From assembly GCA_041172305.1 (NCBI GenBank), contig JBEDKF010000064.1:1-52412 (forward strand): a stretch of 52,412 bases of DNA, written 5' to 3'. The position numbers and the translations under genes were made by a program. Numbering within the stretch: the stretch's first letter is position 1; each line of letters opens with the position of its first letter. Shown here in pieces: positions 2,081-7,970 of the stretch. The stretch is from Actinomycetota bacterium (GTDB lineage Bacteria > Actinomycetota > Actinomycetes > Actinomycetales > Microbacteriaceae). The notes below the pieces were generated by a model. It was not told where the DNA came from, ran no database searches, and saw only the letters and a list, made by a program, of their open reading frames with translations.

Positions 2081-4795
2081 TTAGACGCGAGGCTTTTCGC
2101 GCATCTCGAAGGTCTCGATGATGTCGTCAAGCTCTAGGTCGTTGAAGCCCTGAAGGCCGATACCACACTCGAAGTCGGTCTTGACTTCGGTGGCGTCATC
2201 CTTGAAGCGCTTTAGCGATTCGATCTTGAGGTTGTCTGCGATGACCTTGCCGGCGCGCAAGACACGAGCCAACGAGTTTCGCTTGATCGAGCCCGAGCGA
2301 ACGATCGAACCAGCGATGGTTCCGACCTTCGAAGACTTGAACAGTTCGCGGACCTCTGCGGTGCCGAGCTGTGCCTCTTCGTACTCCGGCTTGAGCATGC
2401 CCTTGAGAGCCTTCTCGATGTCGTCGAGCACTGCATAGATGACCGAGTACTGACGAACGTCGACGCCCTCGCGGTCGGCACGCTCCTTGGCCTTGTTGTC
2501 TGGCTTGACGTTGAAACCGATGATGATCGCGTTGTCAACAGTTGCAAGGTTGACGTCAGATTCGGTAATCGCACCAACACCACGGTGGATGATGCGTAGC
2601 TGAACTGAATCGTCAACTTCGATCTTGAGCAATGAGTCTTCAAGAGCTTCAACAGCACCAGAAACGTCACCCTTGATGACAAGGTTGAGAGACTCAACCT
2701 TGCCGTCTTCGAGTGCCTTGGTGAAGTCTTCGAGGCTAACGCGCTTGCGAGTCTTAGCCAGAAGTGCGTTGCGGTCGGCCGCTTCGCGCTTCTCAGCGAT
2801 CTGACGGGCCTGACGCTCATCGTCGGTGACCACAAAGGTGTCACCGGCGCGAGGAACTGACTGCAGACCGAGAACCTGTACCGGGCGACTTGGGAGCGCC
2901 TCAGTAACGGTTCCACCGTTCTCGTCGAACATCGCACGAACACGACCGTGAGCCGCACCAGCAACGATGGAGTCACCGACGCGCAGTGTTCCAGACTGGA
3001 TAAGCACGGTGGCAACCGAACCGCGACCCTTGTCAAGGTTGGCTTCGATGGCAACACCACGAGCATCCTTGTTCGGGTTAGCACGCATGTCTAGCGCAGC
3101 GTCAGCGGTCAGCAGAACTGCATCTAGAAGGTCAGGGATACCCTTGCCGGTCAACGCCGATACGTCCACGAACATTACGTCGCCGCCGTACTCTTCAGCA
3201 ACGAGGTTGAACTCGGTTAGCTGCTGGCGAATCTTTGCAGGGTTAGCGCCTTCCTTATCGGTCTTGTTAACCGCGACAACAATCGGCACACCGGCAGACT
3301 GAGCGTGGTTCAAGGCTTCAACGGTCTGAGGCATCACGCCATCATCCGCTGCAACCACAAGGATGGCAAGGTCGGTGACCTGAGCACCACGTGCACGCAT
3401 GGCGGTAAACGCCTCGTGACCCGGGGTGTCAATGAAGGTGATCGCGCGGTCGATGCCGTCGTGCTCAACGTGCACCTGGTATGCACCAATGTGCTGGGTG
3501 ATGCCGCCGGCTTCGCCAGCGATAACGTTCGAGTTTCGGATCGAGTCGAGCAAACGAGTCTTACCGTGGTCGACGTGACCCATAACGGTGACAACTGGTG
3601 GACGCGCGACAAGGTCGGCCTCTTCGTCGTCGTAGTCGGTGTCGATGTCTAGACCAAAGCCCTCGAATAGCTCGCGCTCTTCGTCTTCTGGAGAAACGAT
3701 CTCGATCTTGTAACCGAGCTCTTCACCAAGAATCTGGAAAGTGTCTTCATCCAAAGATGCGGTGGCTGTCGCCATCTGTCCTAGGTGGAACAGAACGGTG
3801 ATCAGCTGACCTGCATTGGTGTCAATCTTGTCTGCGAAGTCTTGGATCGATGAACCGCGACGCAAGCGAAGAACGGTAGAGCCGTCGCCGCGAGGTACTA
3901 GCGCGCCACCAAGTGATGGCGCATTGCTGCGCTGTTCGAACTCTTCGCGCTTTGCGCGCTTTGACTTGCGAGCCTTGCTCTGGCCGCGTGCACCGCCCTT
4001 ACCGAATGCACCAGCGGTTCCACCGCCAACACCTCGGCCACGGCCAGCACCCGGGCCGCCACCCGGACGAGAGAATCCACCTGGAGCTGCACCTGGTGCA
4101 CCGCCTGGAGCGCCGCCACCTGGGCGGGCGAAGCCTGCACCAGCCGGACGTGGTCCGCCTGAGAAGCCACCTGGGCGTGGAGCGCCGCCGGCACCTGGAG
4201 CGCCACCTGGGCGACCTGGGCCGCCTGGGCGACCTGCGCCACCGGCAGGACGTGGGCCGCCTGGGCGACCCATTCCTTGTGATGGTGAGAACGGGTTGTT
4301 GCCAGGGCGGCTGATTGGGCGAGGAATGCCCATGCCCTGAGCAGCAGCGAACGGGTTGTTGCCCGGACGCGGAATTCCTGGGGTTGCCGGTGCCGGTGAA
4401 GCTGGCGCTGACTTAGCAGCAGGTGCAGGTGCGCCTGGGGCCGCCGGCGCAGCAGGAGCAGCAGCCTTAGGCGCTGCCGGTGCAGCCGGAGCCGGAGCTG
4501 AAGGAGTCGAAGATCCAGGTCGCGGAGCTGCCGGAGCAGCTGGAGCAGCACTTGATGCTTCAGGCGCTGCGGGCGCCGAAGCTGCAGGTGCAGCAGGTGC
4601 GACCGGTGCAGCCTTAGGCTCTGCAACTACTGGTTTTGCATCTGGGAATGCCTCGCGCAGCTTTTTAGCTACGGGTGGAGCGATTGTTGATGAACCGCTC
4701 TTTACGAACTCGCCGAGTTCTTGAAGTTTGGCCAAAGCAACCTTGGAATCGATTCCAAGTTCTTTAGCAATGTCGTACACGCGTGGTAGCGCCAC
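2081..4795 (-). CDS. infB: Translation initiation factor IF-2
   Basis: [34 protein letters not shown] and NKTD motifs; GTG start with AGGAG SD; Pro/Ala/Gly-rich N-terminal region. Confidence 0.99.
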
Positions 4796-4803
4796 TTTTG
4801 TTT

Positions 4804-4838
4804 CTCCTGTCTGGGGCCTTCCCTAGACAGGGCAGGCC
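4804..4838 (-). promoter_or_regulatory. Two alternative hairpins overlapping the infB Shine-Dalgarno
   Basis: mRNA GGCCUGCCCU-GUCU-AGGGAAGGCC (4838-4815) versus CCUGUCUAGGG-AAGG-CCCCAGACAGG (4831-4806); SD AGGAG at 4808-4804. Confidence 0.6.
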
Positions 4839-4839
4839 G

Positions 4840-4860
4840 TTAAAGCTGTTGGGTACTCAT
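4840..4860 (-). other. Mini-ORF MSTQQL* (candidate leader ORF 2)
   Basis: ATG AGT ACC CAA CAG CTT TAA; its ATG overlaps the TGA of mini-ORF 1 (ATGA). Confidence 0.5.
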
Positions 4861-4874
4861 TTCGAGTTACTCAT
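4857..4874 (-). other. Mini-ORF MSNSK* (candidate leader ORF 1)
   Basis: ATG AGT AAC TCG AAA TGA; its ATG overlaps the ylxR TGA (ATGA). Confidence 0.5.
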
Positions 4875-5134
4875 TTGTTTGCCAACATCGTTTCTGCCTG
4901 TTCTTTAGTGAAGTTCAATCCAGATAAATCTGGTTGACCTGAAAGTTTCAAAGCCCGGATGAATGCTCTCCGAGTGATTGCTAACTCTAAACATTCCTGT
5001 GATGGGTGGATCCATGCTCCTCGGCCAGGCAGCACCTTGAGATCATCGAAAATCAAAACATTTGATTGTTCAATAACTCGCAAGAGTTCTGCACGGCTGG
5101 ATTGCTGGCGACAACCAACACAAGTACGTTCCAT
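4871..5134 (-). CDS. ylxR: YlxR (DUF448) family RNA-binding protein
   Basis: RTCVGCR...ELLR...GRGAWIH...C motif; between nusA and infB. Confidence 0.95.
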   Translation of the reverse strand: MERTCVGCRQQSSRAELLRVIEQSNVLIFDDLKVLPGRGAWIHPSQECLELAITRRAFIRALKLSGQPDLSGLNFTKEQAETMLANK

Positions 5135-5165
5135 TCTAACCCCTAGAAATTGAAAGGGCTAGAGC

Positions 5166-6143
5166 CTAGTCGCCATCCAAGATGCTGTCTGGCTGAATAT
5201 CAATCTTGGCTCCGGTGAGCTTTGCAGCGAGGCGAGCGTTCTGGCCTTCCTTGCCGATTGCTAGTGACAACTGAAAGTCTGGCACCAAAACACGAACCGA
5301 CTTGGTCGCAGCATCAAGCATGTATGAGCTCGAAACCTTCGCCGGAGAAAGCGCCTGAGCAACGTAGGTCGGCAGGTCATCGCTGTAGTCGACGATGTCG
5401 ATCTTCTCGTCGTTTAGCTCGGTCTGAACCGCACGAACGCGCTGGCCGAGCTCGCCGATGCACGAACCCTTTGCGTTTACACCGGCCTCGTGTGCACGAA
5501 CGGCAATCTTTGTGCGGTGGCCAGCTTCGCGAGCGAGCGAGACGATTTCTACGACTCCGCTGGCGATTTCAGGAACCTCCATCGCAAACAACTTGCGAAC
5601 CAATGAAGGGTGGGTGCGAGAAACGGTGACCTGAGGGCCCTTGGTTCCGCGGTTTACCGCGGTTACGAAGACACGGATGCGCTTGCCGTGCGAGTAGTCC
5701 TCACCCGGAACCTGCTCTTCTGGAGGCATGATTGCCTCGATAGTGCCCAGGTTTACGTAAACCATGTAAGACTTCTGGCCCTGTTGGATGGTTCCGGCGA
5801 CGATGTCGCCTTCCTTGCCCGAGAATTCGCCGAAAAGGCTTTCGTCGTTGATTTCACGCAGTCGGTTGAAGATAACCTGCTTGGCTGCGGCTGCTGCAAC
5901 GCGGCCAAAGTTCTCAGGGGTTACTTCGGTCTCGCCAGTTTTGACGCCCTCTTCATCCAAGACTGGGGCGAAAATGTTTACGTGACCGGTCGATTTGCTC
6001 AGCTCTGCACGAGCCGGTTCGGTGTTGCCAACATGCTTTTGGTAGGCGGCCAAGATTGCTGCCTCGATGATTGAGACAAGCTCGTTGAAAGGAATTTCTT
6101 TCTCTCGCTCGATGAACTTAAGTACGCTCAGGTCGATGTCCAT
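5166..6143 (-). CDS. nusA: Transcription termination/antitermination factor NusA
   Basis: FGRVAA..AKQVI, S1 and KH domains, REAGHRTKIAV, SLAIGKEGQNARLAAKLTG; GGAGG SD. Confidence 0.98.
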   Translation of the reverse strand: MDIDLSVLKFIEREKEIPFNELVSIIEAAILAAYQKHVGNTEPARAELSKSTGHVNIFAPVLDEEGVKTGETEVTPENFGRVAAAAAKQVIFNRLREINDESLFGEFSGKEGDIVAGTIQQGQKSYMVYVNLGTIEAIMPPEEQVPGEDYSHGKRIRVFVTAVNRGTKGPQVTVSRTHPSLVRKLFAMEVPEIASGVVEIVSLAREAGHRTKIAVRAHEAGVNAKGSCIGELGQRVRAVQTELNDEKIDIVDYSDDLPTYVAQALSPAKVSSSYMLDAATKSVRVLVPDFQLSLAIGKEGQNARLAAKLTGAKIDIQPDSILDGD

Positions 6144-6206
6144 GAAATGCCTCCAGGCCGCTAGTTAGTTGTCAATTTAGTGAAAAGCTTTGGAACCGTA
6201 AATGGT

Positions 6207-7970
6207 TTAGAGCAATTCAGCCAGTGCCGATTCTACCTTGACTGGGCGACGCTCACCAGAGCGGCGATCCCACAGGTCAACATCTCCCTGTTCAAGACCC
6301 TTACCGACGATGACAATGTTTGGCACGCCAATCAGCTCAGCATCACCGAACTTGACTCCAGGGCTGACCTTCTGGCGATCATCCAGGATGACCGTCTTGC
6401 CCTTGGCTTCTAGTTCGAGAGCCAACTTCTCGGCGGTTTCGTAGACGACCTCATCCTTGCCAGCTGCAACGATGTAGACATCGGCTGGTGAGACTGCTTC
6501 AGGCCAAATCAGACCCTTGTCGTCGTGGTTTGCCTCGGCTAGAACTGCAATCATGCGAGTGATGCCGATTCCGTAGGAGCCCATGGTCACAGTCACCAGT
6601 TTGCCGTTTTCATCGAGAACCTGGAGGCCAAGAGCCTCGGCATACTTGCGACCGAGTTGGAAGACGTGACCGATTTCGATGCCACGAGCCAGCTCTAGAG
6701 GGCCTGAGCCATCCGGCGCTTCGTCGCCGACGCGCACCTCGGCGATGTCGACCACACCATCCGCGGTGAAATCACGACCGGCAACGAGACCGAAAACGTG
6801 CTTCTCGGATGCGTTTGCACCGGAAATCCAAGCCGAACCCTCGACCACGCGTGGGTCAAGCAGGTAACGAATCTTGCTGACACTCTGAGAGCCAAGGATC
6901 GCCTGGCCGTCTTTGACTGGGCCAATGTAACCCTTGATTAGTTCTGGGTGCTTCGCGAAATCTTCGTCGTTGGCCTGCTCGATCTCGTTTGGTGAGAAAG
7001 CTGCCTCGGCGCGCTTGACATCGACCTCGCGGTCACCCGGAAGACCTACAACGACTAGCTCGCGCTTGCCCTCAGGAGAAACCAAAGCCATCACGTTGTT
7101 CTTGAGTGTGTGGGCGGCGGTCCATTCCGAACCGTCCGCACGCTTGTTGTTCTCGTTAGACCAAGCAACGATGCGCTTGATGTTTGAGCACTGCGGAGTG
7201 GTTAGAACCTCGGCTGCCGGCTGCCCCTCAATTGAAATCTTTGGAGGAGCAACGGTGGCAACTGCCTCAACGTTGGCCGCATAACCACCCGGCGAGCGCA
7301 CGAATGTGTCTTCACCAATTGGGCTTGGTGATAGGAATTCCTCGGATGCCGAACCGCCCATTGCGCCCGCGTCGGCCTTGACGATTACGTAGTCAACCCC
7401 CAAGCGGGTGAAGATGCGTTCGTATGCGTCGCGCTGAGCCTGGTATGCCTTGGCGAGACCTTCATCCGTGACATCGAAGCTGTAGGCGTCCTTCATCACA
7501 AACTCGCGACCGCGAAGGAGACCGGCGCGAGGGCGGGCCTCGTCGCGGTATTTGTTCTGGATTTGGTAAAGGCAAACCGGCAGGTCTTTGTATGACGAGT
7601 AAAGGTCCTTCACCAAGAGGGTGAACATCTCTTCGTGAGTTGGCGCTAGAAGGTAATCGGTTTTTTTGCGGTCCTGAAGGCGAAATAGGTTGTCGCCATA
7701 CTCGGTCCAGCGACCGGTTGCCTCGAATGGTTCGCGTGGCAACAAAGCCGGGAAGAATACTTCCTGGGCTCCTGCATTCGCCATCTCTTCGCGAACGACC
7801 TGTTCGATCTTGGCCTTGACGGCAAGACCCAGCGGAAGCCAGGTGTAGAGGCCCGCACCGGCGCGACGGATGTAACCAGCACGAAGCAAGAGCTTGTGGC
7901 TGTTTACCTCGGCCTCGTTTGGATCTTCACGGAGCGTGCGTAGGAACAGGTTTGATAAGCGGATTGGCAT
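6207..7970 (-). CDS. proS: Proline--tRNA ligase (with editing insertion)
   Basis: [51 protein letters not shown]. Confidence 0.98.

Follow-up and report, generated by a model that had tools for sequence, protein, structure and literature searches.

The infB gene, which codes for translation initiation factor IF2, is preceded in nearly all Actinomycetes examined by a relay of at least three coupled mini-ORFs (open reading frames of a few codons, each starting where its predecessor stops), which ends at the foot of two alternative predicted helices. We regard this arrangement as almost certainly a real cis-element, common to the class. As to its action, the folding models lead us to lean slightly towards a negative-feedback translational attenuator, in which the three-mini-ORF leader and the two-state hairpin would together read the efficiency of re-initiation. 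The element is described here from a contig of 52,412 nucleotides (the window, i.e., the whole stretch of DNA that was analysed), and its parts are presented in Table 1.

Table 1. Features of the infB leader and adjoining genes in the window
Feature	Position	Strand	Basis
infB, IF2, 904 aa; likely controlled gene	2081..4795	-	ORF list; Pfam IF-2, IF2_N, GTP_EFTU
ylxR/rnpM, 87 aa, upstream neighbour; the element can do without it	4871..5134	-	Pfam YlxR
SD-like entry site of mini-ORF1, AGAACAGG, within the final ylxR codons	4897..4904	-	anti-SD duplex -5.8 kcal/mol
mini-ORF1, MLANK and stop, sharing its frame with the ylxR end here	4871..4888	-	sequence
mini-ORF2, MSNSK and stop; start forms an ATGA overlap with the ORF1 stop	4857..4874	-	sequence
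mini-ORF3, MSTQQL and stop; start forms an ATGA overlap; stop at the foot of hairpin A	4840..4860	-	sequence
hairpin A, predicted open state; infB SD free	4815..4838	-	constrained fold, -16.4 kcal/mol
helix B, predicted closed state; excludes A in nested folds	4806..4831	-	MFE
infB Shine-Dalgarno AGGAG	4804..4808	-	duplex -9.7 kcal/mol

The ORFs of the window give the minus-strand gene order proS, nusA, ylxR, infB, rbfA, truB, where nusA, ylxR and infB were identified by Pfam, and proS, rbfA and truB are the names that we take to fit their translations. The proS gene passes straight into nusA, with rimP absent between them (6143-6207), and RimP_N (PF02576) was not found in the assembly, which is 85% complete. 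The stretch from the nusA stop to ylxR contains an inverted repeat, and a -10-like hexamer, TAGAAT, overlaps the ylxR start (5138-5133, minus strand); a promoter scan of positions 4700-5400 called no sigma-70-like promoter. An intrinsic terminator was also considered for the leader and rejected, as hairpin A is devoid of a U tract and no terminator was called.

The mini-ORF ATGs (4888, 4874 and 4860) succeed one another on the minus strand in steps of 14 nt and occupy three different frames, with ATGA overlaps at 4874-4871 and 4860-4857, exactly as had been claimed in an earlier, sequence-only reading of this DNA. The final stop is a TAA ending at 4840, and the infB start, a GTG at 4795, follows 44 nt beyond it. 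The mini-ORF coordinates of that reading stand; the feature extends further in both directions, taking in the SD-like site upstream (4904-4897) and the two-state hairpin downstream, both of which had been left out. Dinucleotide shuffling of the 162-nt region of the window yielded a chain of at least three coupled ORFs in 49 of 5000 sequences. Among 1009 rough gene calls of the same genome (long ORFs, with the start picked by SD score), infB is the only one preceded by such a chain when its ORFs are limited to 10 codons; at a limit of 25 codons, the chain precedes five of the 1009.

The distribution of the chain was assessed using a first set of 96 loci, anchored on ylxR and not on the chain itself: all 26 matches of one search, the best 30 of 146 rows, and 40 loci hand-picked for further families. 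Removal of four loci without an infB start and three duplicates left 89 (25-codon ORF limit). At least three coupled ORFs occur in 82 of these 89 distinct loci, compared with 402 of 17800 shuffles (2.3%), and in 53 of the 54 families. Five of the seven misses belong to the window's own genus (L005, L007, L009, L011 and L013), in which the A run of ORF1 is one base shorter; ORF1 there stops at a TAA or TAG inside ATGAGTAR, forming an 8-base overlap that the chain caller does not count. The short A run (at 4878 of the window) breaks the ATGA junction, yet a stop remains beside AUG2. The remaining two misses contain two ORFs (L072) or longer ORFs (L045).

A later set of 35 loci, comprising the order of genome G152 and genomes without a ylxR match, was not used in forming the model. 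Here a chain of at least three ORFs was present in 33 of the 34 loci with a located infB start; in L308 the caller chose an upstream chain, the proper one being visible, and in L286 the infB start was misplaced by 12 nt. In other classes of the phylum, the infB start was located for 44 loci, and none of these contains a chain of three (10-codon limit; four further loci were not located, and the count is independent of L111 and L121, whose genomes are marked unpublished), and in these classes ylxR abuts or overlaps infB. The expectation that serial overlaps would be conserved independently of the peptides is borne out across the class. Since related genomes are not independent, these counts describe the breadth of the element and are not to be read as a p-value.

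A 20-mer taken from L092, a locus of the same class, gave 120 matches, including Mycobacterium and Mycolicibacterium records, which identifies the class as Actinomycetes; M. tuberculosis was not among the 80 listed. The set is circular as regards ORF1. The matches lie visibly before infB in 118 cases (16 by eye), and two are truncated. In 102 matches the sequence parses as a three-ORF chain 89-101 nt upstream of infB, and 62 of these encode exactly MSTP, VKSR and MTMRHS, each followed by a stop. One record of Candidatus Sericytochromatia (L224) carries the mycobacterial motif and is probably a misbinned contig. Variant architectures were also observed: L022 and L279 have expanded relays of five coupled ORFs, family f32 (L038, L052) has a chain without the hairpin and its last stop 21 nt upstream of infB, and in L265 (genome G023) the chain has two ORFs and the hairpin is weak.

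ORF1 has its typical length of 4 codons in 46 of 53 family groups; ORF2 typically has 5 and ORF3 5-7. The peptides vary by lineage (MSAR/MSTQR/MSTxxx, MSTP/VKSR, MKRQR-type ORF2), and in four small complete genomes of family f51 (L266, L267, L273, L274), for which a YlxR match was not found, a four-ORF relay encodes the unrelated peptides MRKI/MKQK/MSSFTS/MRFDN and keeps both helices. The junctions alternate among ATGA, GTGA, TAATG (in L014 and L058) and TGATG, with coupling retained, and the gaps between successive RTGA words, counted without chain calling, equal 2 mod 3 in 106 of 121 cases. The final stop may be TAG (22), TAA (19) or TGA (12 of the 53 family groups), and it lies 36-50 nt before infB in most loci (33-63 in the first set, except for f32). 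To judge from these comparisons, selection acts on the junctions rather than on the peptides, and ORFs of 4-6 codons, below every annotation cut-off, can face strong selection on their junctions alone.

Two accounts of the chain as something other than a relay can be weighed on this evidence. Both junctions of the window contain the same word, AAATGAGTA, as would be expected of a neutral tandem duplication, and a chain appears in about 1% of the window shuffles; its retention in 53 of 54 families leaves chance or duplication with practically no probability, and the shuffles, the genome-wide gene calls and the later set together refute it. Alternatively, the repeated GAUGAG words could be an RNA motif bound by a protein (NusA, RnpM/YlxR or IF2), the mini-ORFs being incidental. 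The neighbouring genes do encode RNA-binding proteins, and an ATGAG context is common at ORF1 as well, where codon 2 is AGC in 32 of 53 groups and no overlap requires it. A binding motif, however, would not call for the frame-keeping spacing, the variable junctions, any of three final stops or an SD at ORF1, and the sequences have diverged fully in f51; we therefore consider it highly improbable.

Of the 53 family groups, 51 have an SD site (-5 or stronger) before ORF1, 13 before ORF2, two before ORF3 and all 53 before infB, and the anti-SD duplex of ORF1 has a median of -10.5 across the groups. These were scored with what we presume to be the anti-SD motif; the 16S tail was not found in the assembly. 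Of 54 groups, 24 have a small four-pair hairpin over AUG2; over AUG3 there is none of note. Since an SD is present at ORF1 and mostly absent at ORF2 and ORF3, ribosomes are expected to enter at ORF1 and to reach the other two by restart. The mini-ORFs are very probably translated in this manner, and the earlier claim that re-initiation is needed to travel along the chain gains support.

In the window, ORF1 is indeed the end of ylxR, as had been proposed, the two sharing a frame. ORF1 nevertheless has its own SD in nearly all groups, and the ylxR stop shifts freely against the chain: among the 53 groups, 33 have it upstream of ORF1, 11 have it directly adjoining ORF1, and in nine it coincides with the ORF1 or ORF2 stop. 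Within the genus of the window, nucleotide conservation starts at the SD-like site of ORF1, and ylxR upstream diverges. A relay fed by ylxR translation was rejected as a general rule on the grounds of these upstream stops, of the f51 chains for which ylxR was not found, and of a footprint-to-mRNA ratio for the S. coelicolor ylxR (SCO5705) about 28-fold below that of infB (our division, from the first data column of PMC4895711).

Published and public transcript data bear on the same site. In RNA-library contigs of related strains, ORF3 carries a deletion of 3 bases at 4847 and the A run has a 1-base variant at 4878, with no substitutions between 4713 and 4918 among the 40 listed of 62; metatranscriptome contigs, which cannot show starts, strand or level, span the element. 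Supplement 1A of PMC9094748, which deals with putative leaderless ORFs, includes as novel an M. tuberculosis ORF encoding MSTP and a stop (3147962-3147948). It overlaps the stop of a ylxR-like ORF by ATGA and lies 89 nt before an annotated start at 3147873, taken here as that of infB (PMC9094748). The main text of that paper makes no mention of infB, and Ribo-RET counts were zeroed there for 50 nt past such 5' ends, so that ORF2 and ORF3 were not callable. In M. smegmatis, three TSSs (2707615, 2707657 and 2707661) fall within the 3' end of ylxR, and a cleavage site of medium confidence lies at 2707680 (PMC6448022), which we infer to be the base before the ORF1 AUG. The S. coelicolor TSSs in PMC4895711 are at the start of SCO5705 and 19 nt into infB, with none at the chain. 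An RNA 5' end at or beside the ORF1 AUG is thus called as a TSS in M. tuberculosis (3147962) and as a cleavage in M. smegmatis (2707680); a cut at this AUG would separate ORF1 from its SD and might bring in a second layer of control. As a general rule, a leaderless start at ORF1 is not supported beyond the one M. tuberculosis row, and a conserved SD precedes ORF1.

The relay ends on two helices which are mutually exclusive, helix B hiding the ribosome-binding site (RBS), as indicated by sequence complementarities and predicted folds. Hairpin A of the window pairs GGCCU (4838-4834) with AGGCC (4819-4815) and CCCU (4832-4829) with AGGG (4824-4821). In 87 of 89 loci it begins 1-9 nt past the final stop, with a median of -17.3 kcal/mol and a median z of -2.67 relative to shuffles (54 groups). 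In a MAFFT alignment of the 54 groups, 83% of its cells are paired and one pair is exchanged among UA, CG and UG; two of 500 shuffles reached this. Hairpin A ends before the SD core and thus does not itself hide the infB SD.

Helix B of the window pairs CCUGUCU (4831-4825) with AGACAGG (4812-4806) and hides the first three bases of the infB SD. In 53 of 55 groups it shuts the infB RBS, through the first codons (42), the SD (6) or both (5): the window has the SD form, and in most other families the 3' arm of A pairs with infB codons 3-5. In the codon-pairing form 89% of the cells are paired, which none of 500 shuffles reached. The 3' arm binds its own infB codons at -14.3, compared with -9.4 for synonymous recodings (native better in 50 of 54 groups), and the Arg of a K-V-R segment is encoded by CGG in 35 of 42 cases versus 161 of 938 other infB Arg codons. 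Covariation is mostly of one or two pairs per helix, among related genomes that are not independent. The different lineages build B from different strands, which argues for selection on the switch itself. The start of B lies more than 10 nt past the last stop in 47 of 53 groups and more than 13 nt in 43; in the window and the other SD-pairing lineages it lies at 8-9 nt, i.e., at the edge of the ribosome footprint. Two small hairpins also occur in the first infB codons of the window (4795-4783 and 4759-4742), the former of which takes in the infB start codon and raises the RBS opening cost.

Such helices bear on another conceivable role of the chain, namely that it merely retains ribosomes on the leader and so protects the RNA against Rho-dependent termination or decay. 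Less Rho-dependent termination accompanies NUGA-overlapped ORFs in M. tuberculosis, according to a study whose main text does not mention infB (10.1101/2022.06.01.494293). A single ORF would suffice for shielding, however, and neither the two helices nor the preference for CGG would be explained; this role is very improbable.

A terminating ribosome covers approximately 7-10 nt after the stop codon. Measured footprints have their 3' ends about 15 nt past the start of the P-site codon (PMC9094748). The effect of such a ribosome on the last stop was modelled by limiting folding to the RNA downstream of that stop, which assumes that ribosomes hold the mini-ORFs open. With a mask of 7 nt, the predicted opening cost of the infB RBS rises by a median of 4.4 kcal/mol (above 2 in 64 of 89 loci), and masks of 10 and 13 nt give median rises of 3.9 and 3.4 kcal/mol. 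Shuffling the spacer abolishes the rise (-0.2 with the 7-nt mask, 46 of 445; and -0.3), and shuffling the RBS under a native leader reduces it to 1.1 and 1.3, versus 4.3 and 4.1 for the native sequences (7-nt mask, 126 of 324 versus 40 of 54). In the later set the median rises are 5.1 (25 of 34) and 5.7 kcal/mol. As B mostly starts beyond 10 nt, the ribosome could break A and mostly not B, so that completion of the relay is predicted to turn infB off.

The energetics of the switch qualify this sign. The A-to-B barrier in the window is 11.4 kcal/mol, and 3.0 when the 5' arm is held open; it is just 3.6-5.4 in three of the eight loci tested, and in every one of the eight B is the more stable helix of the two. 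At equilibrium, the unmasked RBS has a median opening cost of 12.4 kcal/mol versus 12.9 in shuffles. Without a ribosome B is therefore favoured at equilibrium, and the open state must be kinetic and co-transcriptional or captured by the 30S subunit. Folding of the whole leader at equilibrium, with the upstream RNA free, gives a weak and noisy effect (median +1.4 or +0.8), and for the window the sign hinges on the footprint (+8.8, +2.6 and -1.8 for 7, 10 and 13 nt).

These properties would suit a positive hand-off, in which B is closed by default and ribosomes finishing the relay melt it or slide into infB, thereby activating the gene and tying IF2 synthesis to translation capacity. B is the MFE structure without a ribosome in most of the examples shown, and it sits at the footprint edge in the SD-pairing lineages, with the 13-nt mask reversing the sign in the window. 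Family f32, with no hairpin and its stop at -21, and G023, with two ORFs and a weak hairpin, are also compatible with delivery of ribosomes, and short ORFs in such a role are already a known idea (PMC12548453). The equilibrium preference for B, the weakening when upstream RNA is free, the 13-nt reversal and these two forms together keep the hand-off alive. On the other hand, the 43 of 53 groups with B more than 13 nt past the stop place it out of reach of the ribosome, infB has its own strong SD throughout and no overlap with the chain, and a single ORF would be a better means of delivery than three. Nor does a hand-off provide a role for the conserved hairpin A, with its fixed place 1-9 nt after the stop and its pair exchanges, and we consider it unlikely.

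In the attenuator that we prefer, a ribosome would load at ORF1 via the SD (in this genome also by finishing ylxR) and would gain access to ORF2 and ORF3 solely through restarts at the SD-less ATGA overlaps, such that the share arriving at the last stop would vary approximately as the square of the restart efficiency. Hairpin A would fold first during transcription, keeping the SD and start of infB accessible. Once at the last stop, a ribosome would cover the 5' arm of A, and the freed strand could pair with the SD or the first codons of infB; the helix B formed in this way would block infB initiation. Restart would depend on IF2 and fMet-tRNA; an ample supply of IF2 would then reduce IF2 synthesis, and scarce IF2 or excess IF3 would raise it. 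The earlier suggestion of a re-initiation read-out placed before infB is partly supported, by the conserved overlaps, by the lack of an SD at most ORF2 and ORF3 starts and by the limiting role of IF2 for re-initiation in an E. coli reporter (PMC2268962); it had no output step, which is likely to be the two-state hairpin, with a negative sign.

In E. coli, overexpression of IF2 raised re-initiation about 2.5-fold in an assay with a mutant initiator tRNA, efficient re-initiation required IF2, perhaps to a greater degree than de novo initiation does, and excess IF3 lowered re-initiation (PMC2268962). According to a review (PMC12548453), the roles of 30S and 70S ribosomes and the effect of IF3 in re-initiation are disputed, and the IF3 data conflict. 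We give an even chance to the more specific proposal of a dedicated sensor by which IF2 would regulate itself, serial SD-less restarts amplifying small changes in the activity of IF2 or fMet-tRNA and the last stop shutting the infB RBS.

The same switch might respond to another signal: RF2 at the UGA stops, RRF, IF3, IF1, the rare CGA codon before each UGA, or general translation stress. ATGA junctions make UGA stops obligatory, a CGA codon precedes the stop of ORF1 in 44 of 53 groups and that of ORF2 in 39, and IF3 and IF1 also act on coupling. The CGA is replaced by AAA, CAA, CCG, TCA and others, in the window as well, TAATG junctions exist, and the element was found before infB and no other gene among those called in this genome; these observations make a different signal unlikely. 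An element of approximately 110 nt, present throughout a class, would serve as a natural reporter for what limits bacterial re-initiation (IF2, IF3, 30S or 70S).

A full-text literature search, which left most subscription papers outside its scope, found no paper describing such an infB element, and infB is absent from the main texts of PMC11109978, PMC8632094, PMC5737381, PMC4633059, PMC12548453 and 10.1101/2022.06.01.494293, the supplements of which may hold the motif or its ORFs. The serial-restart sensor, of which no description was found in the literature searched, would resemble both a leader-peptide attenuator and the autoregulation of a translation factor. Translational coupling by termination-reinitiation was reportedly treated by Huber in 2019. 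Such coupling at NUGA/URRUG overlaps is known from Shell 2015 (PMC4633059) and D'Halluin (10.1101/2022.06.01.494293). The infB chain shares with it the four-base stop/start overlaps, the SD-less downstream starts, and an architecture that remains steady as the peptides drift. In known coupling, an ORF is joined directly to a functional gene, whereas here two to three serial couplings connect ORFs of 4-7 codons, and the chain ends about 45 nt short of infB, on a two-state hairpin.

In leader-peptide attenuation (ermC, cat and the amino-acid attenuators), the position of a ribosome selects between exclusive helices, one of which hides an RBS. As in ermC and cat, the predicted helices at infB are exclusive and the ribosome footprint overlaps one arm. 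Unlike these systems, the infB leader contains neither a conserved stalling peptide nor a run of control codons, only a CGA bias with exceptions; moreover, the step sensed would be restart and not elongation, and finishing the leader is predicted to close the RBS. The rimP-nusA-infB operon is also subject to rimP-leader/NusA autoregulation, which is transcriptional and acts at a terminator at the operon 5' end (PMC2965389). The two elements share an operon, the present one being located instead between ylxR and infB. A search of Rfam, including the rimP leader, gave four matches with E values of 0.88-2.8, all far below the gathering scores.

Feedback loops are known for IF3 and RF2: infC is autoregulated by its AUU start, and prfB by frameshifting at a UGA. 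As in these cases, the factor's own reaction would set its synthesis at infB, with a predicted negative sign, and the element lies at the factor's gene; infC and prfB use one signal at or in their own ORF, whereas infB would use a separate multi-ORF leader with an RNA switch. For IF2, unlike IF3 and RF2, no feedback loop was found in the literature searched. In the GCN4/ATF4 control of eukaryotes, several short uORFs turn initiator-tRNA delivery into an on/off decision: efficient re-initiation represses the main ORF, and at low ternary complex the scanning 40S passes over the inhibitory uORFs. The infB leader likewise has short uORFs in series, and efficient re-initiation is predicted to repress; its uORFs, in contrast, overlap without a scanning gap or skipping, are led by an SD and end on an RNA switch, no homology is involved, and the target is the initiation factor itself. 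If correct, our interpretation would make this leader the basis of a feedback loop acting on IF2, and a bacterial analogue of GCN4 logic, extending from the mycobacteria to streamlined freshwater lineages.
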